DNA of 64,000 bases from Candidatus Sericytochromatia bacterium (GTDB taxonomy: Bacteria > Cyanobacteriota > Sericytochromatia > UBA7694), in assembly GCA_964229355.1 (NCBI GenBank), contig CAXRDE010000005.1:165131-229130 (forward strand), given 5' to 3'. Below are positions 4,425 to 57,413 of this stretch, one piece after another. The notes under the pieces were generated by a model that was not told the DNA's origin, did no database searches, and saw only the letters and a program-made list of their open reading frames with translations. The first letter of the stretch is position 1. Each line of letters begins with the position of its first letter. Made by a program: the position numbers and the translations under genes.

Positions 4425-7400
4425 ATGGCAAGATCAAAGATAACCAATGAAATTCTCCAGGAAGCTCTCATTGAGCGCCAACTGGTAGAAGCCAACGCCC
4501 TTCAAGAACTTCTTCAAAAACAAGCCCAGGATTTTCAAACCCACCAACATAAGGTCGCTGGCACCGCCTATGTCATCGATCTGGCAAAACAAACCTTGCG
4601 TCTTCAGCAACACCCATCAGGGGAAGTCCTTGAAACCTACGCCTTAAATGCTTCTCCCCAACGCTTCAACGTAGAAGACTGGGACAGCTGGGGCAGCCAC
4701 GTTTTATTGGCGGACACCGAAGAAGGACAGCGTCAAGAAGTCTTTGATCGTGAATTGGGCGCACCTTACGGTCTTGTGGTCACCGATAGCAAGGTATATC
4801 TCTATAATGAGGGCCGCTTAGACAGTGAGTATTTAGGCCTCTCTAAGCACGCTCTATTCGCAGGCGTCTACAAAGGGAAAACCGAACACGGCCCCTTTGA
4901 TCTTTACCTATCTCCCAATAAAAAATACCTCTGCTTGAGCAACCGGGGTGCGGGACAACTGCGCGTTTTTAATTTAGAGACACGAACCCTTTCTGAGCCC
5001 GTCGATATTCGTGCTGCAGGAAGCAACAGCACCCTCAACGTCGCCATTGATGAAACCAAAGGCCTCGCCTACATCACCGATAACCAAAGTGCAGGACTTT
5101 ATAAACTGCATTTAGAAACCCTTGAAGTAGAGCGACAACGGGTGGGTTTAGGCATCCTGGGCAATCTGGCCATGGCTCCCACGGGGGAACACATTTTCTT
5201 GCTGAGCATTAAGCCCAATGTAGGCCTGCATTATGTCAACACCACGTCCTGGAGCTCCGAAAAAGACATCAAGCTAAAAGGCGAGCTGTTTAAAGCCGAC
5301 AGCAGTGACGCCTGTGATCTGTTGAGCGTATCTCCTGGCGGCGAGTTTGTGATGGTCATGAGCTACTTAAACAGCCCGGACCCTTTTACCCCCGTGCTCA
5401 GCGTAATTGATGCCAAGCAGGTCAAAACCTTACGCCGTTACTCCTTAAAAGACGGTATCAAGCCTTATCAATTGGCCTATACGGCGACCAATGCCGTCGC
5501 ACCTTATACCCGCAGTTTAGAAGCCCTGGTTCTGGAAGCACAATTAATGGGTCCCCAGGCCATGTGGAATTTAAAACGTGATCTCAGAGCCCAATGGGGA
5601 GAGGACCCGGATATTGAAGAAGCTCCTCCTAGTCTTGAGACGGAAGAACCCGACGAAGATAGCACTGAAACCACTGACGAAGCCCCTGCCACAGAAGTCA
5701 CTGACGACAAGTCCGAAGAAGAGACTTTTCTGGAAGTGGAATATCAGATTATGGATATTGCCACCAGCACAGAGAACAACCCTGATGCGGACACCTTGAA
5801 TATCACCCCTAAAAAAACAGGGCACATTGTCTTGCCTCCCGAAGCCCGAGAAGAAATCTACGATATTTTACTCAGTACCTTTCAAAAGCAGGTGGATGAA
5901 GACATCAGCACCTATGAAGACGTCGTACAACGCCTGAGCGATGCCGCCGAAAAAGCGCGGGTAGAGCTTGAAGACTATGATTCCACCATCGTGCAATTGG
6001 ACGATCTGTTTGAGGGCCACGGCCTCAAAAGCGTCATTGTACGCGAAGCCATCGTCATGATGCTAGAACTCAAGGAATCGGTAAAGGATCAGGCCCGTCT
6101 GGTGCCCCACGAGTGCCCCAACTGTAACCAAAAGCTCCTGGGCAGCTGGGATTGTAATGTGTGCGGTTTTGAGCTTGAAAGCCCAGACCGCGCCAATAAA
6201 CGGCGCATTGCGTCTGCAGAACCCACCGCAAACTTGCCCCGAGGCCACGTGGTGGTGCCCGATCCTCAGGGGTTACGCATCTTACAGCTCAACCCCTATA
6301 AATACGTCAGCTGGAACTTAGATCCGGACCAGCTCTCCTGTGATTATCCTGTGGATACCCTCTGGATGCCCAACGACAATGTCATGGTGGTGGACAAAGA
6401 CGGCAACCAAATTCTTGAATTGGGCCTCCGAGGCAAGATCTTTTGGCGTTTTGATACCCATGCCAGCCCGTCACATCGCCTGGATGAGCCCGTTAAAATT
6501 ACGTACTTTTTTCCTGAAGACAGCGGCGATCGTCACTGGCTGATTGTAGACCAGGGGAACCACCGGGTCATCGAAGTCAATCGCCAACACGAAATCATTC
6601 GCGAATTCGGCGTACAGGGGATTCCGGGCAGTGAAGGCAGCAACTTACACAGTCCCAGTGATGTGCAGTTCACCCATAACGAAACCTATCTGATTACCGA
6701 CACCGGCAACCACCGGGTCATTGAGTATAAGAAAAATGGGGGCATTGAACAGATCTTCGGCAGTAAACTTGGGCTCAAATCGCCCACCGCGGCACTGCGT
6801 TTGTTCAATGAAAACACCCTGATTCTGGATGCCGGCAATTACCGTCTTTTAGAGATCAACCCCGGCGGTGAAATCGTATACGAATGCACCTACTACACCC
6901 CCGATATGGAAAAGGCCTTCCGGGTGGTATCCCCCATCAAAATGATTCGTTTGATCAACAAAGATATTTTGATCATGGACGAAGACAAGATGCTTCAGAT
7001 TATGCTGCCCGCTCAAAAGTTGGTGTGGCACAGCAAGATCGAAGATCTTGCCTTTCAGCCCAAGGTGGATGCCCCTGAAGTGGTCATTGACGCCGATGGT
7101 AACGAGCGTTTAGTGTATAAGGTGGTGGATCACGGTGAAATGCGCCCCGTACGCCTGGCCCAGAAAATTAACTTCAAGCGGATGCAAAAACTGATTGAAG
7201 CCCGCTTAAGGGGAGAAATTAACCCCGAAGAAAGCAGCGATGGCAAAAGCCACAATGCCGCCGACAAGCTGCGCGCCCTGATCGAAGATCGCAAATTAGA
7301 GTCCAAACGCACCCTGCGCCGTGAACTCACCCTGGACACCTTTCAGCCTTCAGAAATTTTCCAGGCAGAGGACACCGAGCTCAAAGGCTTGCGCCATTAC

Positions 7401-8570
7401 GCGATCGACAAACATCACAATGCGATTATTCGTATCAATCGCAAGGGAGAGGTCAAATGGCACTATGGTTTTGAAATGGGGCAAGCGCTGTCTCGCCCCT
7501 ACCACCTCACCGAAACCCGACGCACCCTGTTGGTGGCAGATACGGGCAATAACAGGGTGGTAGAAATTTCAAAAACCGACAAAGAAGTGATCGCCGAATT
7601 CAAAGGCCCCGAAGGAGACGCCCTGGGAGGCCCCCGTGCTGCCCAACGTTTGAGTTTTGGGCGCACCTTAATTGCTGACCAACGCAACAAACGTTTGGTA
7701 GAGCTCAACAACCGCGAAGAGATCACCTGGGAGTTTAAACGCATGGGGCAAATTTCATCGCCCCAATACGTCGAAGAGCTCGAAAACGGCAATATCCTCT
7801 TTGTGGACTCGATGCTCAACAGCGTTCGGGAAGTGGATCGCGAAGGCAATTTGCGTTGGTCCTACGGCAGTCGCCTCAAAGGCACAGGCCCGGGCCAACT
7901 GTTCGCTCCCGAGTTTGCCACCCGCCTCAGCAACGGCAATACCTTAATCGCCGACACCCGTAACCATCGCATTTTAGAAGTCACCCTGGATGGCAAAGAG
8001 GTGTGGCGCTATGAAGGCAATAAGACGTTGCGGCAAAAAATCCTCAACCCCACCCGCGCTGAGCGCTTAGACAACGGGAATACGTTTATTACCTATAACA
8101 ACGGGCGAGAGCTGGCGGAAATCTCGCCCAATGAAGAACGCGTCTGGTACTTCAAAATGGGCAACGATGTCTTTTTGCCACCCATTAGCAGCGAAAACCG
8201 GGGCAAAAAGCAAATGGTCGAAAAAGTTACGCCTTACTATAACCCCATCGAGAAACGCCTCATACGCTCTGCCGAAGAAAAAGCCATGTGGGGAATGGAA
8301 GCCCACATTACCCTGATGGAAAACTGTCTTATGAAGTCAGTACGTGCCTCATTGGTCCTTATGATGCTAGAAAAATCAGGAACGGTGGTGAAGACTTTCC
8401 CTTCCCCCGAAGAAATTTTGGCAGACAAATTTGGCAAAGAGATCATTATCTCTTTCATTATGGATCCCGGCAAAGATGCTGAAATCGTGGCCGAAGATAT
8501 CCGCTATATTGGCGAAGTGGAACAGGCGCAAATGGAACGCATTGTTTTTGAAGACACGGTTAAAGTTTGA
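4425..8570 (+). CDS. Large (1381 aa) cytoplasmic multi-beta-propeller protein with NHL repeats, acidic linker and zinc-ribbon
   Basis: No signal peptide. N-terminal coiled-coil. YVTN-like propeller region. Acidic low-complexity stretch (EEAPPSLETEEPDEDSTETTDEAPATEVTDDKSEEE). Cys4 ribbon CPNCNQKLLGSWDCNVCGF. At least 9 NHL-type repeats (DQGNHRVIEV, DTGNHRVIEY, DAGNYRLLEI, DTGNNRVVEI, DQRNKRLVEL, DTRNHRILEV ...). Confidence 0.8.
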   Translation: MARSKITNEILQEALIERQLVEANALQELLQKQAQDFQTHQHKVAGTAYVIDLAKQTLRLQQHPSGEVLETYALNASPQRFNVEDWDSWGSHVLLADTEEGQRQEVFDRELGAPYGLVVTDSKVYLYNEGRLDSEYLGLSKHALFAGVYKGKTEHGPFDLYLSPNKKYLCLSNRGAGQLRVFNLETRTLSEPVDIRAAGSNSTLNVAIDETKGLAYITDNQSAGLYKLHLETLEVERQRVGLGILGNLAMAPTGEHIFLLSIKPNVGLHYVNTTSWSSEKDIKLKGELFKADSSDACDLLSVSPGGEFVMVMSYLNSPDPFTPVLSVIDAKQVKTLRRYSLKDGIKPYQLAYTATNAVAPYTRSLEALVLEAQLMGPQAMWNLKRDLRAQWGEDPDIEEAPPSLETEEPDEDSTETTDEAPATEVTDDKSEEETFLEVEYQIMDIATSTENNPDADTLNITPKKTGHIVLPPEAREEIYDILLSTFQKQVDEDISTYEDVVQRLSDAAEKARVELEDYDSTIVQLDDLFEGHGLKSVIVREAIVMMLELKESVKDQARLVPHECPNCNQKLLGSWDCNVCGFELESPDRANKRRIASAEPTANLPRGHVVVPDPQGLRILQLNPYKYVSWNLDPDQLSCDYPVDTLWMPNDNVMVVDKDGNQILELGLRGKIFWRFDTHASPSHRLDEPVKITYFFPEDSGDRHWLIVDQGNHRVIEVNRQHEIIREFGVQGIPGSEGSNLHSPSDVQFTHNETYLITDTGNHRVIEYKKNGGIEQIFGSKLGLKSPTAALRLFNENTLILDAGNYRLLEINPGGEIVYECTYYTPDMEKAFRVVSPIKMIRLINKDILIMDEDKMLQIMLPAQKLVWHSKIEDLAFQPKVDAPEVVIDADGNERLVYKVVDHGEMRPVRLAQKINFKRMQKLIEARLRGEINPEESSDGKSHNAADKLRALIEDRKLESKRTLRRELTLDTFQPSEIFQAEDTELKGLRHYAIDKHHNAIIRINRKGEVKWHYGFEMGQALSRPYHLTETRRTLLVADTGNNRVVEISKTDKEVIAEFKGPEGDALGGPRAAQRLSFGRTLIADQRNKRLVELNNREEITWEFKRMGQISSPQYVEELENGNILFVDSMLNSVREVDREGNLRWSYGSRLKGTGPGQLFAPEFATRLSNGNTLIADTRNHRILEVTLDGKEVWRYEGNKTLRQKILNPTRAERLDNGNTFITYNNGRELAEISPNEERVWYFKMGNDVFLPPISSENRGKKQMVEKVTPYYNPIEKRLIRSAEEKAMWGMEAHITLMENCLMKSVRASLVLMMLEKSGTVVKTFPSPEEILADKFGKEIIISFIMDPGKDAEIVAEDIRYIGEVEQAQMERIVFEDTVKV

Positions 8571-10624: not shown

Positions 10625-11413
10625 ATGATTTCACCCACCAATAACTTAGTTAAACTCGGTATCGGTGCCGCCCACCGCATGCGCCTGGAACTGGCTGATC
10701 AGTTATTTTTTCCTGTACTGGTAGATAAAAGCAACCCCTCTCAACCCATGCCCGGGGGCTACATCGGCAATCGCAGTGGTATTTCTACCCGTCTGACCGC
10801 CGACGGCATTGCCGGTAATACAGGAGCCTACGGAGCTGACTACAGCGCACTGGCGGGAGATCCTATCGCAGCAGTCAAAACCATGACCTCTGATGGCCCC
10901 ATCTACACCATGCAACGCTATGATGGCAAAGGCATTATTACCATTGAAGATGCGCGTCTCAACGGTGATCTAAACCCGTCTGCACCTCAATACGATTATT
11001 CTTCAACCCCACGGTATATCGTCAAAGCCGACGGTATTGTCTATGATATCTTAGCCCTCAAAGGTGTCGATCCAGACCCCGATGAAACCGCAGCAAACGG
11101 TCCCTATCAGCACTGGGCTTTTGCAGCCGAAGGACTTCCGAACCCTGCCGGAGGAACCTTTGGCACCGGCACCTATGCTGGTGCCAACAATGCTTACAGG
11201 CCCCATAACGACTTCTTGCCTGCCAATATCACCGAAGATATGTATGTGCGCCCTGTGGGCTTGATTTCATTCCGGGACAAGCAAGGTGCCTCTTCAGGTG
11301 CGATTCAGGAACAACTGCAACGGGCCCAAAGCACATTAGATACCATGAGCCGCCTCTTACGCAGCCTTCACCAGGAATCTCAAACCGCCTTTGCAAACTT
11401 CGTGGTGCGCTAG
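10625..11413 (+). CDS. Hypothetical protein (Gly/Ala/Pro/Tyr-rich, no signal peptide)
   Basis: 262-aa ORF with coding-like composition, an AGGA RBS, and a C-terminal predicted helical segment. No recognisable domain. Confidence 0.45.
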   Translation: MISPTNNLVKLGIGAAHRMRLELADQLFFPVLVDKSNPSQPMPGGYIGNRSGISTRLTADGIAGNTGAYGADYSALAGDPIAAVKTMTSDGPIYTMQRYDGKGIITIEDARLNGDLNPSAPQYDYSSTPRYIVKADGIVYDILALKGVDPDPDETAANGPYQHWAFAAEGLPNPAGGTFGTGTYAGANNAYRPHNDFLPANITEDMYVRPVGLISFRDKQGASSGAIQEQLQRAQSTLDTMSRLLRSLHQESQTAFANFVVR

Positions 11414-33865: not shown

Positions 33866-34606
33866 ATGGCAAAATCACAACAAAAAGAAGAAACGGCACA
33901 ACTTTCTCCAGAGCAAGTCGTTCGGGACTATGCCCCCCTGGTGTATAAAATTGCCCACAATTTATCTCGCCGCACCGTAGATCCCGTAGAGGATCTTATT
34001 CAAGTGGGAATGATTGGCCTGTTGGAGTCTCATCGACGCTTTGATCCCACCCAGGCTGCTTCTTTTAAAACCTACGCCACCCATTTTGTCAACGGCCATA
34101 TTCGTCATTATTTGCGCGACCGTCAGCAATTGCTCAAAGGCCCCCGCTCCCTACAGGAACTCACCTATCGCGTGCAAATGGCCCAAAAAGAGTTAAAGCA
34201 AAAATACAAGCGTAATATCAGCACCGAAGATATTGCCGCCTACCTGGGGATTGAACACGCACAGGTCGATGACGCCCTGAACTATGCTCGCAAGGCCAAA
34301 ATGCTCTGGCTTGACCAGCAGTACAGCAGCAGCAATGGCGAAGACGAAGCCCGCACCTTGATGGACACCCTTCCCGACGAACAAGGGGGCATGGATCAGC
34401 GCATGGACACCCGCATCTTTATTGAAGAGGGGCTCCGCCAGCTGTCAGAGCTTGACCAAAACCTCTTGCGCTTGCGCTACTTCGAAGATCTTACCCAGGC
34501 CAATATTGCACGCCAGCTCGACATGTCACAAATGGATGTTTGCCGCAAATTGAAACAGGCCGAAAAGCGCCTGCGCAAACTCTTGTATAGCCCCTCTGAA
34601 TCTTAA
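33866..34606 (+). CDS. RNA polymerase sigma factor, group 3 (FliA/SigF/SigB-like)
   Basis: Region 2 (LIQVGMIGLLESHRRFDP...FKTYATHFVNGHIRHYLRD) and region 4 HTH (LSELDQNLLRLRYFEDLTQANIARQLDMSQMDVCRKLKQAEKRL). Confidence 0.85.
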   Translation: MAKSQQKEETAQLSPEQVVRDYAPLVYKIAHNLSRRTVDPVEDLIQVGMIGLLESHRRFDPTQAASFKTYATHFVNGHIRHYLRDRQQLLKGPRSLQELTYRVQMAQKELKQKYKRNISTEDIAAYLGIEHAQVDDALNYARKAKMLWLDQQYSSSNGEDEARTLMDTLPDEQGGMDQRMDTRIFIEEGLRQLSELDQNLLRLRYFEDLTQANIARQLDMSQMDVCRKLKQAEKRLRKLLYSPSES

Positions 34607-35857: not shown

Positions 35858-37303
35858 CTAGGGCGTCGTCGCCAGGAGTTCGCATAAGCGCTGCTGGGTC
35901 TGTATGGCTGCCCCATAACTTGTGAAGTGATTCATCAAAAACGAAAAGATGATCACTTCATTTTTTTGGGTATAAACATAACCTGACAGGGAAGATACCC
36001 CGTTAATAAAGCCCGTTTTTGCACGCACACGACGCTTCAACAAAGGCGTGTTCATACGTTTTTTCAGGGTGCCATCGACACCGGAAATAGCCAGGGATCC
36101 CATAAAGTCTACACTGACGTCAAATTGTTGAAACATGTATTCTAAGACCCGGCTCAGGGTCGTGGCGGTCAAGCGGTTTAAAGGCGACAGACCTGAGCCA
36201 TCCGCAATCACCAGGGGGGTGTTGGGGTCAATGCCCACCTGGCTGAGCAAAAAGCGGTCCTTAATGACCTGCGCCCCTTTTTCAGCGGTGCCCGGCGCAC
36301 CGATAAAATTAGCGCCCATAAACTTCAATAGATTTTCTGCAATCAAGTTCACACTGTCTTTGTTAAGACGGGTCACAATATCTTTAAGGGGCGGTGACAG
36401 GGTAGAAGCCAAAATCGTAGCTCCGGCAGGCGTTTGCCCCTTTACCACTTTGCCCTGCAATTGAATTCCTTCTTGCTTCAACATGGACTGAGCCACATTG
36501 CCCACATACAAACCTGGTTTATCTAAGTTGATGTTTTCGCTTTCCGTACGGCCCCGTAGGTTCACCTGACCTGAAACGATAATTTGATTGCGGTTATTGA
36601 CCCACTGACGGGAGATTTTAAGCCGTGTGGCTCCGGTGGTCGTTCGGGTTTGATTGACGATATCAAAGAAAGTGTTTTCAGGTTTAAGACGGACGTTTGC
36701 CGCTTGTCCCAGTTGTCCGGGCTTGACTTGCACAGCCACCGTATTCAGATTTAAAGACAGCGCTGAAATACGGGCACTGTAGGCCGCTGCGCCATAGGTG
36801 TCCTTCCACCCCTTACCCCGGGTTTCCTGATCAAAAAAAGTATCGTCCACGTACAGATTACCGGTGATGCTCTCCACCCCAGCAAAGCGCAGCTCTTGTA
36901 CGAGTTCACTTAAGCGCTCGTCATCCAATACCGGATCGCCATAGCCTTTGAGGTAAATATCCCCATTTAACACACCGCCCCGCAAGCGGGCATTGCTATA
37001 CAGCGTGGTCTTGAAGCGAAATTCAGGCTTCAGCAAGTGCAAAGCTGCGGCAGAGGTAATCACTTTCATGTTCGAGGCTGGAATTAAGGCCTTGTCCGCG
37101 TTTTTTTCAAACAGCACTTGCCCGGTTTTCATGGACACCATACGTACCGCTGTATTTTGAGGGGAAAGCCCCGCCTGATTCAAAATACTTTGCGCAGTAC
37201 TGGCCTGAAAAGCCTGGACAGGTAGAGGCCCAATAAAAGTTAGGGAGCAGACCAGTGCGCACAGGGAAGTCATTAAAGGGTTTTTCTTAAAGAAATGTAA
37301 CAC
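35858..37303 (-). CDS. dacB: D-alanyl-D-alanine carboxypeptidase/endopeptidase (PBP4, peptidase S13 family)
   Basis: Signal peptide. SNMK active-site motif (PASNMKVITSAAAL). Overall PBP4 architecture (~480 aa). Confidence 0.8.
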   Translation of the reverse strand: MLHFFKKNPLMTSLCALVCSLTFIGPLPVQAFQASTAQSILNQAGLSPQNTAVRMVSMKTGQVLFEKNADKALIPASNMKVITSAAALHLLKPEFRFKTTLYSNARLRGGVLNGDIYLKGYGDPVLDDERLSELVQELRFAGVESITGNLYVDDTFFDQETRGKGWKDTYGAAAYSARISALSLNLNTVAVQVKPGQLGQAANVRLKPENTFFDIVNQTRTTTGATRLKISRQWVNNRNQIIVSGQVNLRGRTESENINLDKPGLYVGNVAQSMLKQEGIQLQGKVVKGQTPAGATILASTLSPPLKDIVTRLNKDSVNLIAENLLKFMGANFIGAPGTAEKGAQVIKDRFLLSQVGIDPNTPLVIADGSGLSPLNRLTATTLSRVLEYMFQQFDVSVDFMGSLAISGVDGTLKKRMNTPLLKRRVRAKTGFINGVSSLSGYVYTQKNEVIIFSFLMNHFTSYGAAIQTQQRLCELLATTP

Positions 37304-37520: not shown

Positions 37521-38417
37521 TTGGCTAAGGATAATCCGCTGCAATCGTTACGGTTTTCCAGCGCGCGTCCTCTGACTTCAGAGGACCTTAAAGCCCTTTA
37601 TTATATTCATGACCGTGTTGCGCAAACGTTAACGGAGATCTTGTCTGCTGAGCCGACTTCTGCGGCCACCTGGCAAGTGATCAGTATCGAGCAAAACCCG
37701 TTTCAAAAGATTTTGAGAAAGTATCCGCGAGACTCCGTCTGGTCCTTACTGGGCTTTGGCGAATCTCTGGTAGGGGGCGTTGCCCTCGTTATTGAAAAAG
37801 AGTCGGTCATCTCAATGGTGCGTCAGGCAGGAGCAGACCTGGCTCCTGAGTCTGAAGATGAAATCACCGAGTTTGAGTTGGGACAAATTGACAATCGCAT
37901 TCAACAGTTTTCGGAAGCGTTTTCAACCATTTGGGGTGAGTATCACCCACTCAGCTTACAGCTGGCCACCTTCCCCAACACACCAACCATTGATGAGTTC
38001 CGCAATCTGCTCATGGGTCTCAACACAGAAACCCCCTGTATCACCATTACCTTCCAGGTGAGCATGATTGCCCGAGAAGTTCAAAAGGCATCACTCATCT
38101 TCCCACAACCTTATCTTGCCCCGCTGTACCATGTACTGCAATCGGTCAATGAGACCATGGTTGAAGAAGGCGACTTTGAACAGGTTCAAGAACGTATCGG
38201 TATGGTAGACGATATTACAACACCTGTGGTGGTCGAGCTCGGAAAAACCCGCATGAGCTTTTCTGATATTCAGAATATGGAATTCAATGACTTTATTATT
38301 TTGGATCAGACCATTGATGCGCCACTTCGTGTCAAAATCGGCAAGGACACCCAAATGAAAGGCTCTCCTGGCACCACTCCAGATGGCCGTTACCTTGCCG
38401 TACAAATAATTGAATAA
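37521..38417 (+). CDS. fliM: Flagellar motor switch protein FliM-like (short form, 298 aa)
   Basis: TTG start. N-terminal LTSEDLKALY resembles the CheY-P-binding LSQxEIDALL peptide. YYIHDRVAQTLTEIL aligns with the FliM IINERFARHF region. C-terminal SpoA/FliN-like domain (VVVELGKTRMSFSDIQNMEFNDFIILDQTIDAPLRVKIG). Confidence 0.65.
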   Translation: MAKDNPLQSLRFSSARPLTSEDLKALYYIHDRVAQTLTEILSAEPTSAATWQVISIEQNPFQKILRKYPRDSVWSLLGFGESLVGGVALVIEKESVISMVRQAGADLAPESEDEITEFELGQIDNRIQQFSEAFSTIWGEYHPLSLQLATFPNTPTIDEFRNLLMGLNTETPCITITFQVSMIAREVQKASLIFPQPYLAPLYHVLQSVNETMVEEGDFEQVQERIGMVDDITTPVVVELGKTRMSFSDIQNMEFNDFIILDQTIDAPLRVKIGKDTQMKGSPGTTPDGRYLAVQIIE

Positions 38418-38444: not shown

Positions 38445-40412
38445 ATGTACCAGCATGACTCGTCCCTGGACGACTTGTTGCGTCGGCCCATGCTAATGGC
38501 CACAAACGACGACGAATACGAGTACGAATACGAAGATGATGAGTTTGATGACGAAGAGGATGATCTCTTCGGTTCAGACGTTTTGGCGGCTGCACAAGCC
38601 GAAAAAGAAGCTGAAGAACAGGCCGCAGAAGCTTTTGCAGCATCTCTGTTGGGAGGACATCCCGAAAATGAGGTTGTTGAAGAAGAAGCTGCCCCTGAAC
38701 CACCCCCTGAACAAAGCAAACTTTTCTTAAGAAGCGGTGTTCGCCGCAACTTTTTAGGTTATGGTGCCGTTATTTTAGCGGGCTTTGGTCTGCTCCTTCT
38801 ACTGGTGCTCTTCGCCGTGCGCGCAGGACTCAGCTCTGTCATGATGCTTTTCACTCTGGGCCTAGTGGTCGGCCTGGTTCTCTCTGTTTATCAATTGGTC
38901 TTCATCTATAACAACTTCGATCAGTTCACCGTGAGCCTCAATGTTCGCCGCTTTTTCCGCTTCTTTCCCGAATTGGTCGTGGTGTCTCTTGTACTGCTCG
39001 GTCTGGGCTTTTGGAATATCTCAGGTATGGCGAATGGCACCCCCTTTACCTTATCTGGCAAACCTTTAAACGCCCCCCAAACCGCTTCTCTGTTTGAAGA
39101 GAACCAGGAGGAGACCGTATACTCTTCTTTTAAAACTGCACAATTAAACAAAGAAGAGGCCCTGAATACGCTGGGCGGTTCTGTGGCTGCTGCCGGTGCT
39201 CAAAATGGTAAAGCCCCCGGTGAATATGTGGAGCAACCTGTGGCGGGCGCAGCCGTCGCCGGTCTTGTAAAAGACCTGCCAGCCGATGCCATTCCTAACG
39301 TCCCCACCGAAAACACCGGCGAAAGCCCTCTGCGCAACGATGATCCTTTGATCAACAGTGTATTTTTAGGAGGAGCACTCTGTGCTGCCCTGGGCTATGC
39401 GTTCGTGCTGGGATTGGCGGGTATGATTTTTGGTCTTATCCGTTCTTTTGACACACCCTTTTCTGAAACCAAGCAAGAGATTTTCAACATTGAAACCGGT
39501 GAAGTGACCACAAACACCCAACCTAAAGCCCCTATTATGAAGCCCCTGGATTACATCTACCGGGGATTCATTGGACTGGGTTATGGTGCGTCCCTGGGCT
39601 TTTTGCTGGGCGCAGCGGTTATTTTACCCTTAAACCTGCTTTTCAAAGGTCTGCTGGCAAACGACAATGTTCGTCCCCTGTTGCAAACCTTTGGTCTGTC
39701 TAATGTTCCTGATATGGCCTTTAGTAACGGTTTAACCCTGGCGGCAATTATGGTTCCCCTGGTGTTACTCGTGGTGGCTAAAATGTCTCCTCAAGGTAAG
39801 TCCATGAGCGAGTCCGTCATTTTGGATCAGTATGTTATTAAGCCTACAGGACGTTTTGTAGCCCCCGATCAACTGGTGGGAGGCAACCTGCCGAATCCAG
39901 CCATCGTGAACTTCGGTGGTGCAGGTATGTTAATTCCTGACGATGAGTTAGAAACCGAGCTAGCCAACGATCGCCTGATGGACGAACTGGCCATGGAAGA
40001 TGACAACCTCACTTCAGAAATTATTGAGGAGTTTGGACGCGACTTTGAAAGTGTCTTTGGCATCGATACCCGTGAGCTGATTACACAGCCCAAGGGACGT
40101 CAGAGCAGCTTCGTGGATCGCAAGCAGCTTTCTACCGCCCTGGACGAGTCCTTCGGCGAATTGGGCAATGTCCCTGTAGAAGTCTCTGCAGAACTGGGCC
40201 AGGCTACCCTGGATATTACCGAGTGGCTCAACCTCAAAGAAGGAACCCTCGTTTTGCTGGATAAGCCCGCAGACGAAGAAATCGATATCCTGTTCAACGG
40301 GGTTCGCAAAGGCAAAGGTCAACTGATTGTGTCAGAAGACGCATTGGCTGTCCAAGTATCTAACACCAACTTTCAGCGCCAGAACGGCAATGGAAGTGGA
40401 GCAATTATTTAG
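38445..40412 (+). CDS. Polytopic membrane protein with C-terminal FliN/SpoA (surface presentation of antigens) domain, 655 aa
   Basis: Acidic N-terminus (DDEYEYEYEDDEFDDEEDD). At least 6 hydrophobic helices. C-terminal FliN-type domain (VEVSAELGQATLDITEWLNLKEGTLVLLDKPADEEIDILFNGVRKGKGQLIVSEDALAVQV). Good RBS. Confidence 0.75.
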   Translation: MYQHDSSLDDLLRRPMLMATNDDEYEYEYEDDEFDDEEDDLFGSDVLAAAQAEKEAEEQAAEAFAASLLGGHPENEVVEEEAAPEPPPEQSKLFLRSGVRRNFLGYGAVILAGFGLLLLLVLFAVRAGLSSVMMLFTLGLVVGLVLSVYQLVFIYNNFDQFTVSLNVRRFFRFFPELVVVSLVLLGLGFWNISGMANGTPFTLSGKPLNAPQTASLFEENQEETVYSSFKTAQLNKEEALNTLGGSVAAAGAQNGKAPGEYVEQPVAGAAVAGLVKDLPADAIPNVPTENTGESPLRNDDPLINSVFLGGALCAALGYAFVLGLAGMIFGLIRSFDTPFSETKQEIFNIETGEVTTNTQPKAPIMKPLDYIYRGFIGLGYGASLGFLLGAAVILPLNLLFKGLLANDNVRPLLQTFGLSNVPDMAFSNGLTLAAIMVPLVLLVVAKMSPQGKSMSESVILDQYVIKPTGRFVAPDQLVGGNLPNPAIVNFGGAGMLIPDDELETELANDRLMDELAMEDDNLTSEIIEEFGRDFESVFGIDTRELITQPKGRQSSFVDRKQLSTALDESFGELGNVPVEVSAELGQATLDITEWLNLKEGTLVLLDKPADEEIDILFNGVRKGKGQLIVSEDALAVQVSNTNFQRQNGNGSGAII

Positions 40413-43314: not shown

Positions 43315-43581
43315 ATGCGCTACCGCTTACCCGATGACCAATATCCTCAAAATCGTTTTAGCAAAGCCAAGTTGATGGGCTCAAAATGGACAGCCTTGCC
43401 CTTGCAGCAGCAAAAGTCAGGGGTCCCCTATAAACATTTTTTGGTATTGGGATGGCTTGAGCGCCAGCTGGGCAAGCCACAAGAGATACTTGAACTCGAA
43501 GCAGTGCTTACCCGAGAAGTGTATGAAATTCCCTATCAGGCTTTAAAAAACGCTGAGCACTGGAAAATGGGCTGGCACTAA
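43315..43581 (+). CDS. Tryptophan-rich small protein (TIGR02450-like)
   Basis: LMGSKWTALPLQQQKSGVPYKHFLVLGWLE...LELEAVLTREVYEIPYQALKNAEHWKMGWH follows the SKWTA...KHFLV...LEAVLS...W..GW pattern of the Trp-rich hypothetical family. Start abuts the fliR stop (TAAATG). Confidence 0.5.
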   Translation: MRYRLPDDQYPQNRFSKAKLMGSKWTALPLQQQKSGVPYKHFLVLGWLERQLGKPQEILELEAVLTREVYEIPYQALKNAEHWKMGWH

Positions 43582-45702: not shown

Positions 45703-46593
45703 TTACAGATAGATTTCGGCGTGGGGCTGCACAGTCCAGACCCACAGCATGGCTAAACTTAAGCATAACCCTGTCACCAGGGCTACCGTCAAGTATCGAG
45801 AAAACCCTTTTAAGGCAGTAACCGGAGGCAGGTAAAGCACAAGCGGTGCCAAAAGGGCTGTCCAAGCCAGCCAGGCCACCGGCGACAGACTGGCAAATAG
45901 GGTCACATTGATCCAGAGCATGGCCAAAAGCCAAACCTGTGAGCACACCAGTCCGGTAGAAAGCGCGGGGTGTTCCCGGAAATGACGGGTTTGAAAAATA
46001 AGTGCTGTGACCCCCTGAATTCCCGCCAGAGAAAAAGCGGCCTGGGCATATACTGCGCTGCTTCCCATTAAAAAGAGAACCCCACTGCCCACACTCATCA
46101 GTCCCATCACCAGGGGCCAGACTCCGGCATGGGCAGATACCCGCGCAGACGCAAAGGCGACTCCCACGAGCAGGGGCAGGCTTATTAACACACAGCCCCA
46201 TAACCCGATATAGAGCACTGCCGTCGACGTATCTTGCCAGGCATATTGACGCAAAGGTGCGCTGAGAAGAAACACGTAGATTAAGCTAAGCCCTAATCCA
46301 GCCATAAGACGTCCTGCGGAAAACAAACCCTGGCGAGAGTGAGGAGCAAAGAGAGCCAGCAAAGGCAGCGCATAAATCCACCAGGCCGAGGGATCGGTAG
46401 GTGGGAAACCCGGAAAGGCCCTTTGATACAGCAACATATCTCCACACCAAAAGCCAAGCAAGGCGGCCAGTCGCAGGCATACAACAGGCTCCAGAAAGCG
46501 CAGCAGTAAAAAATAACAAAGGCCACAGCTTATCAGGGTGCCGCCAAAAGGCAGGAACAGTGGATAAACCGTGGCCATTGCTTCAAAGCGCAA
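45703..46593 (-). CDS. Polytopic integral membrane protein, hypothetical (~8 TM)
   Basis: 296 aa, almost entirely hydrophobic helices. 15 nt upstream of the DUF4344 gene on the same strand. Confidence 0.5.
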   Translation of the reverse strand: MRFEAMATVYPLFLPFGGTLISCGLCYFLLLRFLEPVVCLRLAALLGFWCGDMLLYQRAFPGFPPTDPSAWWIYALPLLALFAPHSRQGLFSAGRLMAGLGLSLIYVFLLSAPLRQYAWQDTSTAVLYIGLWGCVLISLPLLVGVAFASARVSAHAGVWPLVMGLMSVGSGVLFLMGSSAVYAQAAFSLAGIQGVTALIFQTRHFREHPALSTGLVCSQVWLLAMLWINVTLFASLSPVAWLAWTALLAPLVLYLPPVTALKGFSRYLTVALVTGLCLSLAMLWVWTVQPHAEIYL

Positions 46594-49407: not shown

Positions 49408-51465
49408 ATGGGTATAATAAAAGTATCCCATTCATTTTATAGGAAAGCGTGCCTCTGCTCCATGAACATTAACACCCGCCCCAACACCCCTCAGGCGCCG
49501 CTCTCTTCTCAAGCTTCTGGAGAGGCTGCCGCCACCCCAACACCACCTCCCACAAATCCGTCAGCAAAAACGGGCACAGAGAATGCAACCCCGTCTTCTA
49601 CCCCCGTGGATCAACTGCTCGTTGAACTTCCGCTGAAGCCTGCCACAGCCGCTTCCACCGTTGCAAAGGGTTTACTGTTTGACGATACTGCTCCAACCCC
49701 TGAAATTTCAGAACGCCTCAGTTACGGAGGCTTTGCCCTTGACAACCCCGATTTGGGAGGGCGCTTAATCAGTCTGCGCCAGGCTTTTGCTCCGGGTGAA
49801 AATAACACCCTGAACCCCAACAATTATAAGGTGATTACCCAGGCTCCCAAAAATGTGGCCCGCATGAACGTGTACGGTGAAACCTCACGTCACATTCAAA
49901 GTTTCTCAGATATCAAAACCTTAAACCAGGAAACCATTAACCAGCATCTCAGCCAAACCCTTGGGCGTGCGCCTACCGAAGCAGAAGTCAAAGCCTATCT
50001 GCAAGAAAATGGCAACGCCATGGCACAGATGCTCGGCGATGATCTCAGCGATAAATACAGCAGCTTTACCAGCGTGGGACTCACCGGCGATGTGAACACC
50101 CTGGATCCCTTTCGCTCCGCAGGCTCTGATGATAATAGCATCGTGGTGTGTACCAATATCCACGCCTCAGTGGCCGCTTACCGGCAAGAAGTATTGGGGC
50201 AAGAAGCGTATGTGATGACCACCAATGGTAACGATCAGGCCCATATCGTCACTGTCTATTTTGACCCGGCCAAAGAAAGCTGGAACATCCAAAATTATGG
50301 CACCATCGTCGAAACCCAGGCCAAAGACCTGCGTCAGCTTTTTGAAGAGTATCTGCCCGATCAACGCTACATCACCCTGGGCAGTGTCAACGAAGACAAA
50401 ATTGGCTTAACCCGCGACACCCGCACCCCCCTGGGTGAAAGAGAATACCGTTTTCGTTCCCAATTGGGCGCCGGTCAAGCTCCGCTGAACACCCAGAGCG
50501 GCAGTTTTGTCGAGGTGGGCAACCGAGAATTGTCAGCCGGACTGGGCGGGCTCAAGGTATCCTTTGATCCCACGACGACCACCGCGGCTCTGAATTATCA
50601 TCAACGCACTGTGGACGGAAAGCAGGAGCACATTCGGGGCCTGGGGGTAGAAGCTCAGGATCACACCAATGACTTTGGCTTTCAGCGTCAACGCATTGAC
50701 GCCAAGTACGAAAGCCAAAAAACCACCCATGAACACCATAGCCCCGGTCACGAAAAATATACCCGCAGTTACCTTAACGTACACGCAGGTATTGAAGATA
50801 CCAGTGAAGCAGGGCCTATTTACTGGGCCAACAACAGCGACACAGGCCCTGCTGCACGGGTTGGAGCCTTTTATTCGCACACCCAAAACAATCTGTACGG
50901 TACCCAGCCCTTACGTTTTGAATGGGGCACCCAGTTCAATGCAGGACTCACCGCCACGGTGGGAACCCAGGGCGACGATTTTTATAGTCAGTACGTGACC
51001 CGCACTTTAGGGGACGCCGTCTTAGAAGGGCAAACCAATGTGGGGCTACGCTATGACAACAAAGGATTCAGCGCGAGAGCGGGACTTACGCCACGCCTTG
51101 ATCTGGCCAATATCAACGGTATACAAAATGTGGGGCAACAACTCAACAACACCTTTGAGTTAGAGGCCTACGGCGAAATCAGTTACCGGGGAGATCGGGG
51201 ACAAATCGCGCTGATGACCCAGGCTGATTTACGACACGCAGGGGTTTTTGAGGTGGGCGCCATGAGCCAGTTGAACCTGACAGAAAAGCTCTCCTGGGGC
51301 AATAGCTTTAGCCATCAAAACGATCCTGTATTGGGCAATCGTACCGGTTGGCGCACAGGCTTACAGTACGAACCGTTGGAACGCCTAAACATTTATGGTA
51401 ATGTAGGAACAAATCTGAAAGGTCAAGGTCAGTTTGGTATCGGAGCTGCCTGGCGTTTTGACTAA
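49408..51465 (+). CDS. Large hypothetical protein (685 aa), no signal peptide, Pro/Thr-rich N-terminus, Gly/Asn/Thr-rich beta-rich C-terminal half
   Basis: Long clean ORF. Alternative start at MNINTRP (49462) has an AGGAAAG RBS. Contains a C/H/N arrangement (VVCTNIH, 31 aa to QAHIVTV, then ESWNIQNYG) and ends ...GIGAAWRFD. Confidence 0.55.
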   Translation: MGIIKVSHSFYRKACLCSMNINTRPNTPQAPLSSQASGEAAATPTPPPTNPSAKTGTENATPSSTPVDQLLVELPLKPATAASTVAKGLLFDDTAPTPEISERLSYGGFALDNPDLGGRLISLRQAFAPGENNTLNPNNYKVITQAPKNVARMNVYGETSRHIQSFSDIKTLNQETINQHLSQTLGRAPTEAEVKAYLQENGNAMAQMLGDDLSDKYSSFTSVGLTGDVNTLDPFRSAGSDDNSIVVCTNIHASVAAYRQEVLGQEAYVMTTNGNDQAHIVTVYFDPAKESWNIQNYGTIVETQAKDLRQLFEEYLPDQRYITLGSVNEDKIGLTRDTRTPLGEREYRFRSQLGAGQAPLNTQSGSFVEVGNRELSAGLGGLKVSFDPTTTTAALNYHQRTVDGKQEHIRGLGVEAQDHTNDFGFQRQRIDAKYESQKTTHEHHSPGHEKYTRSYLNVHAGIEDTSEAGPIYWANNSDTGPAARVGAFYSHTQNNLYGTQPLRFEWGTQFNAGLTATVGTQGDDFYSQYVTRTLGDAVLEGQTNVGLRYDNKGFSARAGLTPRLDLANINGIQNVGQQLNNTFELEAYGEISYRGDRGQIALMTQADLRHAGVFEVGAMSQLNLTEKLSWGNSFSHQNDPVLGNRTGWRTGLQYEPLERLNIYGNVGTNLKGQGQFGIGAAWRFD

Positions 51466-53354: not shown

Positions 53355-53879
53355 ATGAACGCTTCTCGCTTCACCCTCTATTTGGGTCTTATGACATTCC
53401 TTTTAAGCCCCCAGGCCATGGCCAACGCTCCGACTGCTGCACCTCCGCCTGCGCCCAGTCAGATGGTAAAATTGTCTTCCATGGGCCATCTGGTAAACCA
53501 TGATAAGCGCATTAGCACCTTTAAAACCCTACTTCATCAAGCCAAACTTGAGTCTGTGCTTAACGCTCATGGTGCAATGACCCTGTTTGCACCAAGTAAC
53601 GAAGCCTTAGGAGAACTTCCCAAATCCATCACCCATAAGCTGGAACACGATGCCAAATTTCGCAAAGCGTTTATTATGTCCCACGTGTTCGCTGGAAAAA
53701 TGAGCACGGATTTTCTCAGAAAAACCGATACCATTCGCGCGTTGACTGCCCGCGAGTATATGATTCGCAAAGAAAACAATACCCTGCTTGTGGATAATCA
53801 AAGTTTTCTTGCCCAGGATATTAACGCCAGTAACGGCATGCTCCACATTGTTAACGGTCCCCTTATACAGGCCGATTAA
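53355..53879 (+). CDS. Fasciclin (FAS1) domain secreted protein
   Basis: Signal peptide. HGAMTLFAPSNEALGEL and NGMLHIVNGPLI are canonical FAS1 H1/H2 motifs. Confidence 0.8.
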   Translation: MNASRFTLYLGLMTFLLSPQAMANAPTAAPPPAPSQMVKLSSMGHLVNHDKRISTFKTLLHQAKLESVLNAHGAMTLFAPSNEALGELPKSITHKLEHDAKFRKAFIMSHVFAGKMSTDFLRKTDTIRALTAREYMIRKENNTLLVDNQSFLAQDINASNGMLHIVNGPLIQAD

Positions 53880-53937
53880 GCACAAGAGAGAATGCTATAC
53901 TGGCCTTATGTTCTACATCAAGCACAAAGGATTTTAC

Positions 53938-54504
53938 ATGCGACAGCGTTCTCTTCTCAAACAAGGCCTCTTCAGCACGCTGTGTTGGGGCGCCATGACT
54001 TCCCCACTGTGGAGCTGCCCGCTTCCCACTGAAGCAGTGCAGCGGGTTTTTGAAAACACGCCGGCCCTTGAACAGCGCAGTCAACTGCCAGGACGCTGTG
54101 ATTACTCCTGGGCCCGGGCAGAGCAGGCCCAGATTGCAGAGCAAAATGCAGAACGACTAAAACAAGGCGCCGGCTCAAACCCCACCCAGGCTCCGCTTTG
54201 GCATCGTCTTCAGTTGGAGGTTTACGCCCAGCTGGAGTCCGTGAGCCAGGCCAAAAGTCAATTTCAAACGCTTCTGAACGAAGGCCCTCCTCAGCGTTAC
54301 GGGAGCCCAGACCCCTTGCAAAAACTCCAATTCACCCAAATACGGCCCTATACCGCGTGGGACAAGCAGCAATCGGCCCTGCTTTTTGTAAAAGACAATG
54401 CGATTTATCGCCTGCATCTGCAAGTGCCTGGCTTAACGCCCGAAAAAACCCTCGAAAAAGCGCTCGCTCTGAGTGAAGCGGTAAGCTCTCCGAAAGCCCC
54501 TTAA
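53938..54504 (+). CDS. Hypothetical secreted protein
   Basis: Start chosen at MRQRSLLKQGLFSTLCWGAMTSPLWSC (AAGGA RBS, signal-like). Ala/Gln-rich helical protein. Confidence 0.35.
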   Translation: MRQRSLLKQGLFSTLCWGAMTSPLWSCPLPTEAVQRVFENTPALEQRSQLPGRCDYSWARAEQAQIAEQNAERLKQGAGSNPTQAPLWHRLQLEVYAQLESVSQAKSQFQTLLNEGPPQRYGSPDPLQKLQFTQIRPYTAWDKQQSALLFVKDNAIYRLHLQVPGLTPEKTLEKALALSEAVSSPKAP

Positions 54505-54507
54505 GCA

Positions 54508-54969
54508 TTGGGCGCATTTCTGCTCTTTTTAATTTATGGCAGCATGGTCTTTTTTGAAGGGGTCTTGCTTTACCAGATTCTTGAGGATCACGAAAAAAAG
54601 AGTTTTAATCAAACCCTGGGCGATGTCGTTGCCGTCAATCTGTGCACTTTGGTGTGCATTGTCTTTATTTTTGGCCCCGTGCTTTCACGGCTACAGCGTA
54701 CGGGCACTATGACCCAGTTCTTTCAAACCATGCTGGTCACCTGGCCCCAGGAAATTGTCAAAATCTGTTTTTTCTCTATTGTCGTAGACGCCCTGTTTCT
54801 GGCTATTTGGTTTGCTTATCGTTACCCGGAACAAAAGCCTGACTTTTTTATGTCTGCGCTACGGGGAGCCCTGATGAATGTACCGGCATTTATTGTCTTA
54901 AGTATTTCCTGGGCTTTTACAGAAATCATGCGTGCCTTCTTTCAATTTTTAGGGGGCGGACGCGTCTAA
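54508..54969 (+). CDS. Small integral membrane protein, hypothetical
   Basis: 153 aa with ~4 TM helices. Confidence 0.4.
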   Translation: MGAFLLFLIYGSMVFFEGVLLYQILEDHEKKSFNQTLGDVVAVNLCTLVCIVFIFGPVLSRLQRTGTMTQFFQTMLVTWPQEIVKICFFSIVVDALFLAIWFAYRYPEQKPDFFMSALRGALMNVPAFIVLSISWAFTEIMRAFFQFLGGGRV

Positions 54970-56200: not shown

Positions 56201-56542
56201 ATGTCAGATAACGCATTGAATGTGCTGACCCTGGCTACTGAGTTGGAAAGTCAGCTCATTCAGTCGTTATCAGTAACCGCTTCAGGTTCACAGCTTGTGC
56301 TGGCACCGCAACTGCTGTCACGCTTTTTTGAAGTCTTAAAAGAGGCCACCCGCTATGCCCAACAGGAAGGGTTTCAGCGGGTGGCCTTATTGTGTGATCC
56401 ACGCATTCGTAGAGAGCTTCGCCTCTTGGTCGAGAGGGCTTATCCTCAGATGCCCGTTTTATCGTATGCAGAAATAGCGCCAGGGTTTTTCGTGCAAAAT
56501 GTTCGAACCCTGAATCTGGAAAGTTCTATTTTACCAGAATAA
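56201..56542 (+). CDS. Hypothetical protein (113 aa) downstream of thiolase
   Basis: ORF starting 2 nt after the thiolase stop. Confidence 0.35.
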   Translation: MSDNALNVLTLATELESQLIQSLSVTASGSQLVLAPQLLSRFFEVLKEATRYAQQEGFQRVALLCDPRIRRELRLLVERAYPQMPVLSYAEIAPGFFVQNVRTLNLESSILPE

Positions 56543-57413
56543 CTCGGGCCTCACGCAGCAGTCCGTTGCTAACATTCAATCCCAGCAGGCGACGGACGTC
56601 TTCCTTGGCAATAATAACATCGGTGCGAAAGCTTCCCGTAGCGCTCAGGCCTTTAATGATCAAAGGGTTTGCACCCACCCGAATGTTTTGTCTGGCCTGA
56701 GCCAGGGAGTGAGCGTAGCCCACAATCCCCTGGGTAATCACAAAGTCAGGCTCTACCGCCACAGATCCCAGGTAGAGTTCACCACCGGTTTGACTCATGA
56801 CGGCAGGACTCATGGCAGGTGCAAGGCCTAATCCGCGGCAATCAATAATGACACCCGTATAATTTCCAGGATTGGGATCCGCTTGCTCTTCTACAGGCAA
56901 CGGGGGAGAAATATGTTTTTGGGGCTGCAAAATACCGCTTAAGCCTTTGCTGGCATAGAGTTTAACGGCCATTTCCACTTCAATGGTGCCATCATCTAAG
57001 TAACGCTGATCAATTTTCTGAGCTCCCTTGACCAGGGCTTGTAAATAGCTGTCGAGGGTCTCGCTTTCCATGGCATAATCTCTCACCACGGTTTCAGAAT
57101 TCACACGCACTTTGTAAATCGCATCCATCAGCTGACGATAGGCGTCTGCAGTGGCTGAGCGTTCAGCCATCAGCTGTTTCTGAGAAAGCGTACCGCGATC
57201 AGGGGGAGCACCCACGCCCACCACACGAATCACACCTTCGGACCAATCCACGGTGATATTGCCGTCAATCTCAGTCACCCGTTGCACTTTCATGTCTGCA
57301 GCATGTACCAAAGCGCTCTGGGACGACAGGGCACACAGCCCCACACAAGTAAGGCTAAGAAAAAAACGGGTGGTGGACTTAAACATGGAAAACTCCTGTA
57401 AATTTGTAGACAA
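56526..57413 (-). CDS. Secreted protein with LPP20/FlgP-like lipoprotein-family domain (putative)
   Basis: Signal peptide (FFLSLTCVGLCALSSQSALVHA). Segment GVIRVVGVGAPPDRGTLSQKQLMAERSATADAYRQLMDAIYKVRV resembles the LPP20/FlgP family. Second similar half. Confidence 0.4.
   Translation of the reverse strand: MSTNLQEFSMFKSTTRFFLSLTCVGLCALSSQSALVHAADMKVQRVTEIDGNITVDWSEGVIRVVGVGAPPDRGTLSQKQLMAERSATADAYRQLMDAIYKVRVNSETVVRDYAMESETLDSYLQALVKGAQKIDQRYLDDGTIEVEMAVKLYASKGLSGILQPQKHISPPLPVEEQADPNPGNYTGVIIDCRGLGLAPAMSPAVMSQTGGELYLGSVAVEPDFVITQGIVGYAHSLAQARQNIRVGANPLIIKGLSATGSFRTDVIIAKEDVRRLLGLNVSNGLLREARVILVK

Follow-up and report, generated by a model that had tools for sequence, protein, structure and literature searches.

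A predicted membrane-anchored SPOA-domain protein encoded between fliM and fliN in Sericytochromatia

A 64,000-nucleotide stretch of a Candidatus Sericytochromatia bacterium genome (GenBank assembly GCA_964229355.1, contig CAXRDE010000005.1, positions 165,131 to 229,130; the whole stretch is called the window below) carries, at 38445..40412, an open reading frame (ORF) of 655 amino acids (aa), gene X, whose product joins a C-terminal FliN-type SPOA domain to six predicted transmembrane (TM) helices. As a SPOA switch protein, X has an architecture without precedent; its membrane domain is an orphan, and the protein is kept across a whole bacterial class. On balance, and with modest confidence, we favour the interpretation that it is a lineage-specific, membrane-tethered third SPOA subunit of the flagellar switch complex/sorting platform in Sericytochromatia. 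The SPOA proteins of the C-ring (FliN, FliY, SctQ and the C-terminal domain of FliM) are regarded as soluble, and their ring spins beneath the membrane; a class-wide membrane-integral SPOA paralogue raises the question of how a membrane protein is coupled to the rotor or to the export platform, and suggests that the nearest non-photosynthetic kin of cyanobacteria have a type of motor that is still unexplored. That such a protein had gone undescribed was part of the original prediction, made from the DNA alone, and our searches agree with it: the full-text literature searched, which left many subscription-journal papers outside its scope, contained no description of a membrane-integral FliN or FliY or of Sericytochromatia flagellar components, and databases label the X proteins only with the family name 'FliM/FliN family flagellar motor switch protein'.

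The X family comprises a long clade (26 sequences), divergent intermediates and a short clade of about 460 aa. Residue numbers refer to X, whose features in the window are:

38445..40412 (including the stop codon), + strand: gene X, 655-aa membrane-anchored SPOA-domain protein, from the ORF listing, with an ATG start
38445..38501, + strand: conserved N-terminal peptide, aa 1-19 (MYQHDSSLDDLLRRPMLMA), predicted cytoplasmic, from the 26 long-clade sequences
38502..38714, + strand: acidic low-complexity tract, aa 20-90, with a conserved DDLFG..D.L motif, from composition and invariant residues
38751..39035, + strand: predicted TM helices 1-3, aa 103-127, 131-156 and 174-197, with a short cytoplasmic R-rich TM2-TM3 loop, from hydropathy and model confidence (pLDDT, see below) >90
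39036..39362, + strand: hypervariable TM3-TM4 loop, aa 198-306, predicted periplasmic, from length variation, low pLDDT and the highest non-synonymous divergence
39363..39785, + strand: predicted TM helices 4-6, aa 307-332, 375-405 and 422-447, with a conserved cytoplasmic beta-hairpin loop, aa 333-374, from invariant columns and the structure model
39786..40157, + strand: conserved acidic cytoplasmic linker from TM6 to the SPOA domain, aa 448-571, with many invariant residues
40158..40364, + strand: C-terminal FliN-type SPOA domain, aa 572-640, from PF01052 and PDB FliN matches

The SPOA domain and the membrane domain of X

The SPOA domain was the sole Pfam/NCBIfam signal in X. PF01052 (FliMN_C) matched aa 572-640 with an E value of 3.5e-18 (65.7 bits vs a cutoff of 23.8) and was recovered in 12/12 divergent family members, and FliN chains in the PDB matched the same domain with E values of 2e-9 to 9e-9, which bears out the C-terminal FliN-type domain originally proposed. 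Its identity was 31% to the FliN of the same cell and 23% to the C-terminal domain of its FliM, values that mark the X SPOA domain, as far as sequence comparison goes, as a distinct third paralogue beside these two proteins. Models of other SPOA proteins scored lower: the FliY model NF005995 reached 40.3 bits (cutoff 218) over the SPOA region only, a second FliY model, NF006272, was not among the matches of X at E<=0.01, and the FliM middle domain, PF02154, had no match in X or in the 12 divergent members. The SctQ/YscQ model TIGR02551 also remained below its cutoff (37.6 vs 100.8 bits), and an SctQ/YscQ identity was rejected on this score and on the flagellar context (FliO, hook genes, flagellin). 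An SctQc-type internal-start product was rejected as well, given that the candidate Met residues are not conserved and that a separate fliN is present.

Residues 57-124 of Salmonella FliN could be aligned to X without gaps, FliN residue n corresponding to X residue n+516. In Salmonella FliN, the hydrophobic patch that binds FliH is formed by L68, A93, V111, V113 and Y118 (PMC7505661). The equivalent positions in X are L584, A609, L627, V629 and L634, all hydrophobic and invariant or nearly so, and the patch thus appears compatible with FliH binding.

Assignment of the membrane helices was based on hydropathy, the positive-inside pattern and an AlphaFold2 (AF2) model, and the helices are thus predicted ones. 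Kyte-Doolittle windows of 19 residues, peaking at 1.7-2.8, delimited exactly six hydrophobic segments in X (at about aa 105-127, 133-156, 177-196, 307-331, 375-400 and 429-446), which among 26 homologues had a mean hydropathy of 1.65-2.1 and no more than one charged residue each. The full-length AF2 model had an overall predicted local distance difference test score (pLDDT) of 56, with the six helices at 75-91; aa 88-470, modelled alone with a 52-sequence alignment, gave a six-helix bundle with pLDDT 80.7, a predicted template-modelling score (pTM) of 0.77 and helix blocks at 91-98. Near the membrane, 10.8 Lys plus Arg were counted in 77 residues on the predicted cytoplasmic side vs 3.0 in 63 on the other, a bias from which both termini are predicted to be cytoplasmic, and with an even number of helices the SPOA domain must face the same side of the membrane as the N-terminus. 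The earlier estimate of at least six hydrophobic helices can therefore be narrowed to exactly six, on which hydropathy, the AF2 bundle and the charge bias agree. An N-in, C-in topology fits these data; with it, the acidic N-terminus of roughly 100 aa, the conserved loops 157-176 and 333-374 and everything after TM6 (linker and SPOA domain) would be cytoplasmic, and loop 198-306 periplasmic.

TM5 contains a GxxxGxxxGxxxG glycine zipper (G377/G381/G385/G389), a motif typical of tight helix packing and of homo-oligomeric membrane assemblies. The cytoplasmic TM4-TM5 loop (aa 333-374), in which the AF2 model places a beta-hairpin at aa 342-359, includes the invariant R333 and E345 and is nearly invariant throughout the long clade (RxFETPFSQKxVEIINIETGEVT), as is the linker, with many invariant residues in stretches such as DNLTxEIxEEFGRDFExVFGIDTREL. 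The TM3-TM4 loop, modelled with low pLDDT, ranges from 103 to 235 aa among homologues through Ala/Pro-rich insertions; a subclade (P0016, P0020-P0025) has low-complexity Ala/Pro/Lys-rich insertions of about 100-130 aa in this loop, and its proteins reach 726-775 aa. Among the 12 divergent members, Pfam at E<=1 returned only FliMN_C and no family for the membrane region, and the linker (aa 448-571) matched neither a family nor a PDB entry. A PDB sequence-profile search with the non-SPOA part found no relative (best match adenylate kinase, E 0.9), Foldseek found no fold relative of the membrane domain (best E 3.1, TM-score <=0.15), and Foldseek with the full-length model gave weak SPOA matches only. 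A relationship to MotA/ExbB, FliO, FliL, FliPQR or FlhA/B was rejected, as no sequence or fold similarity to them was detected in the six-TM domain, which is, on these comparisons, an orphan membrane domain.

Distribution, gene order and selection

A word-indexed search retrieved 26 protein clusters of 637-775 aa, 49-98% identical and all with PF01052, whose names include Candidatus Sericytochromatia and, once, Candidatus Obscuribacterales; a profile used through the same search returned the same 26 proteins only. A profile of the non-SPOA part (A2), run against all 1.84 billion representative proteins, matched 14 proteins, all of the X family, among them the divergent intermediates and the short form. 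The eight examined (P0027-P0031, P0036, P0037 and the fragment P0039) had TM segments and, where complete, a C-terminal SPOA domain. Seeding a search with the short form P0037 added 36 clusters, with names such as 'Cyanobacteria bacterium UBA8530' and 'REEB65', and brought the TM-plus-SPOA architecture to about 60 clusters in total. Nearly all named sources were Sericytochromatia or unclassified non-photosynthetic 'Cyanobacteria bacterium' metagenome-assembled genomes (MAGs), and the eleven loci encoding X among GTDB species representatives all came from Sericytochromatia, Blackallbacteria or UBA7694 MAGs. Outside the SPOA domain, G317, R333, E345, G381, G385, G389 and G417 are invariant in the whole family, short clade included. 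Since the short clade has neither the N-terminal peptide nor the acidic tract, the six-TM domain and the linker, together with the SPOA domain, make up the ancestral core of the family, judged by sequence.

In the window, X is flanked by the following flagellar genes:

37521..38417, + strand: fliM, 298 aa, without room for an N-terminal CheY-docking peptide, from PF02154 and PF01052
40447..40863, + strand: fliN, canonical, 138 aa, from PF01052 and TIGR02480
40872..43314, + strand: export-gate genes fliO, fliP, fliQ and fliR, from Pfam FliO, FliP, Bac_export_3 and Bac_export_1

The ORF listing and the Pfam/NCBIfam matches confirmed the position first given for X, between a fliM-like gene and a genuine fliN, the product of the latter scoring 86 bits with PF01052 and 100.9 bits, above the cutoff of 84.05, with the fliN equivalog model TIGR02480. 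Only 27 nt separate fliM from X and 34 nt separate X from fliN, a purine-rich stretch precedes the ATG of X, and in consensus scans sites resembling promoters or terminators were no more frequent within the cluster than in shuffled sequence. The short gaps and the lack of excess terminator-like sites fit co-expression from a single operon. Conservation of the gene order in relatives, which had been put forward as a check, was found to be extensive: fliM precedes X in every locus with enough flanking DNA, from 98% down to about 25% identity (in L019 the 3' end of fliM is all that precedes it), and the order fliM - X - fliN - fliO(P) - fliQ - fliR holds wherever the flank sufficed, except in L022. 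In the short-clade locus L025 the block lies between flgD-flgE and a flagellin gene, which identifies the context as that of a bona fide flagellum.

Comparison of X with its L001 homologue gave a proportion of synonymous differences (pS) of 0.54-0.78, which is saturated, and a proportion of non-synonymous differences (pN) of 0.01-0.20 in every region (SPOA 0.01, linker 0.04, N-terminus 0.075, TM blocks 0.13-0.17, variable loop 0.20). With pN far below pS throughout, X is not a chance ORF and the whole of it is under purifying selection. These data bear on a trivial explanation of the architecture, namely that an assembly or frameshift error joined a membrane-protein gene to a fliN gene, or that the hydrophobic stretches are buried in a soluble protein. 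We consider this very improbable and effectively refuted: the uninterrupted single ORF recurs in the roughly 60 clusters, which stem from numerous assemblies and sources independent of one another, fliN is present as a gene of its own downstream, selection acts on all its parts, and six segments of 18-26 residues with at most one charge, the positive-inside bias and the confident AF2 bundle speak for a membrane protein.

Several features of the neighbourhood may be recorded here. In the window fliO and fliP are separate but overlapping genes; in the short clade and the P0030 lineage they are fused into one gene of 385-425 aa (PF04347 plus PF00813), as in L021 (3513-4670), L023 (6603-7880) and L025 (11731-12912). 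A Peptidase_S13 gene (PBP4-type D-Ala-D-Ala carboxypeptidase; window 35858-37303, - strand) is divergent from fliM, and the pairing, kept in L001, L003, L005 and L022, may reflect a link between peptidoglycan remodelling and flagellar assembly. Directly after fliR lies a gene for a tryptophan-rich DUF2389 protein (43315-43581, + strand), found in the same place in L001 and nearby in L003, which may be an accessory of the flagellar operon. A group-3 sigma factor of the SigB/F/G type (33866-34606, + strand; TIGR02980, 177 bits) is encoded 3 kb upstream of fliM; its similarity to FliA/WhiG is below the cutoff (127 vs 189.6 bits), and its pairing with Urate_ox_N is kept in L001 and L002 and not in L003 or L005. 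Finally, six ORFs of 153-685 aa in the window had no Pfam match at E<=1e-5 (49408-51465, 10625-11413, 53788-54504 and 54508-54969 on the + strand; 56526-57413 and 45703-46593 on the - strand).

The N-terminal peptide and signal input

Both N-terminal elements pointed out in the original prediction, an SLDDLL peptide and a strongly acidic stretch (DDEYEYEYEDDEFDDEEDD), are present in X and kept across the long clade, where MYQHDPxLDDLLRRPMQMA is nearly invariant. The N-terminal region contains a mean of 30.7 Asp plus Glu residues, and AF2 confidence is low in the acidic tract, in which D40, F42, D45 and L47 are nonetheless invariant and the DDLFGxDxL motif nearly so. The proposed likeness to peptides that bind phosphorylated CheY (CheY-P) found no support. 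The CheY-docking N-terminal peptide of FliM is of the EIDAL type (PMC6946799), whereas the invariant core of the X peptide is L..LRRP, and a search of the first 60 aa of X with FliM and FliY models gave no match, not even at a threshold of E<=10.

FliM itself is of interest in this respect. Its match to TIGR01397 (69 bits) starts only at position 36 of the profile, the reading frame is closed by a stop immediately before the TTG start codon, and its orthologues in all clades examined are 298-323 aa long and devoid of an EIDAL motif; taken together, these features indicate that FliM in these organisms, to judge by its sequence, cannot carry the usual N-terminal CheY-docking peptide. The window contains no cheY, cheA or mot genes, save for one CheA-type P2 domain (PF07194, aa 1292-1370, E 2.9e-14) at the C-terminus of a 1381-aa NHL-repeat protein (4425-8570, + strand), in which no kinase or Hpt domain was detected. 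A similar protein of 1400 aa, with NHL and cNMP_binding, is encoded near the flagellar operon of L003, and L022 encodes a standalone 174-aa CheA-P2 protein 1.7 kb downstream of X.

It could thus be argued that X is a FliY-like signal input or brake, in which the LDDLLRRP peptide captures CheY-P or another regulator in place of the FliM peptide, and binding to the membrane-anchored X alters the rotation bias or stops the rotor. The absence of an EIDAL-type peptide from FliM, the almost invariant, helix-forming [L]DDLL peptide of X followed by an acidic tether, the fliY position of the gene after fliM, and the presence of P2 domains, which bind CheY, in proteins encoded close to X, both in the window and at L022, are all in keeping with such a function. 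Nevertheless, we judge it quite unlikely: besides the failure to match FliM/FliY models, the invariant residues of the peptide (RRP, Met/Ala) differ from those of EIDAL peptides, X has no CheC domain, and no cheY was seen in the window. Moreover, only L..(L)RRP is left of the peptide in the intermediates P0028-P0031, and the short clade, in which FliM lacks the motif too, has no such peptide at all; a complementary pattern, with FliM regaining a CheY peptide where X lacks its own, was not found in any clade. Whatever the binding partner, an orphan fold in X together with a FliM without its docking peptide means that the signal input of the motor may also be rewired.

The role of X and comparison with known systems

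X sits in the position that fliY has in other bacteria, with a six-helix membrane domain in place of the CheC-like domain. Extra SPOA paralogues have arisen repeatedly, and the FliY of Campylobacter/Helicobacter (Epsilonproteobacteria) and of Leptospira, encoded right after fliM and coexisting with FliN, forms heterodimers with both FliN and FliM and is able to bind FliH (PMC6946799). With this precedent, we read X as a third SPOA subunit provided with a membrane anchor. By analogy with the Epsilonproteobacteria FliY, the SPOA domain of X would pair with that of FliN and/or FliM, a pairing that would make X a part of the spiral at the C-ring base or attach it there. The six-TM domain would lie in the inner membrane around the MS ring, and its helices may, to judge by the invariant glycine zipper, pack tightly or oligomerise. 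The 125-aa linker, with an estimated length of 19 nm as a continuous helix and >40 nm in an extended state, would be long enough to span the distance from the membrane to the C-ring base. The conserved FliH-type patch further suggests that X can present a docking site for the export ATPase complex. In effect, X would tie the FliM/FliN assembly physically to the cytoplasmic membrane, a tether of the kind first suggested from the DNA alone.

Several points weigh against this interpretation. The score of X on TIGR02480 is below the cutoff (58 vs 84.05 bits), and its SPOA domain may have diverged away from incorporation into the ring. In L022 (10767-13033), the place of fliN after X is taken by genes for a Response_reg/ANTAR regulator, an epimerase and the standalone P2-domain protein. 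Finally, it is mechanically difficult to see a rotating C-ring bound to a partner fixed in the membrane, as the TM domains of that partner would need to turn with it within the ring of stators. The role of X could accordingly take three versions, among which sequence cannot decide: co-rotation with the rotor, as the TM helices of FliF do, a stationary dock, or a regulated input or brake.

The stationary dock is the strongest specific rival, and we regard it as possible though doubtful. X would then be an export-apparatus dock or assembly factor rather than a rotor subunit, forming with FliN a membrane-tethered SPOA dimer beside the FliPQR/FlhAB gate; this dimer would recruit FliH-FliI or nucleate assembly of the C-ring/sorting platform, much as the SctK-SctD tether serves the SctQ pods of the injectisome. 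The difficulty of a membrane protein bound to a spinning ring would then disappear. Conservation of the FliH-patch residues in X and its location directly upstream of fliN-fliOPQR are consistent with a dock, and binding of SPOA dimers to FliH/OrgB is known from flagella as well as from injectisomes (PDB 4yxc, 4yx7; PMC6946799). On the other hand, the adjacency of fliMN and fliOPQR is a common flagellar gene order, which makes proximity to the gate genes a weak argument, and FliH and FliI genes were not seen near X.

A bolder form of the membrane-tethered third-subunit interpretation, which we hold to be rather improbable, is that the glycine-zipper helices let X assemble into a polymeric ring within the membrane, which encircles the MS ring and is connected to the FliM/FliN spiral. 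If true, there would be either a new rotor substructure turning within the bilayer or a static platform with a SPOA assembly that does not rotate with FliG, and in neither case would the C-ring of Sericytochromatia fit the canonical view of a drum that rotates freely and lies wholly in the cytoplasm. Although the organisms are uncultured, X yields testable constructs: topology fusions, SPOA pairing and peptide-CheY binding assays.

Among known proteins, FliN resembles X in its SPOA fold, shared without gaps along FliN 57-124, and differs in being a soluble C-ring protein of about 100-140 aa that is essentially a SPOA domain, as opposed to 655 aa with six TM helices. The FliY of Bacillus and Thermotoga, a CheY-P phosphatase, has a comparable layout, with a short conserved N-terminal peptide, a middle domain and a C-terminal SPOA domain, and its gene likewise follows fliM. 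It replaces FliN, however, whereas X coexists with FliN; X lacks the CheC-type phosphatase domain and its active-site motifs (the CheC family had no match at E<=1 in 12/12 X members), and its peptide is not recognisably of the EIDAL type. The early suggestion that X might replace a FliY-type phosphatase is therefore wrong in the enzymatic sense. The FliY of Epsilonproteobacteria and Leptospira shares with X its place after fliM, its coexistence with FliN and a C-terminal SPOA domain with a conserved hydrophobic patch; that FliY is soluble and has a CheC-like middle domain, where X has an orphan six-TM domain and an acidic N-terminus instead. In the injectisome, SctQ is tethered through SctK to the membrane ring protein SctD. 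By analogy, both this chain and X would link a SPOA assembly to the inner membrane, by separate proteins in the injectisome and within a single polypeptide in X.

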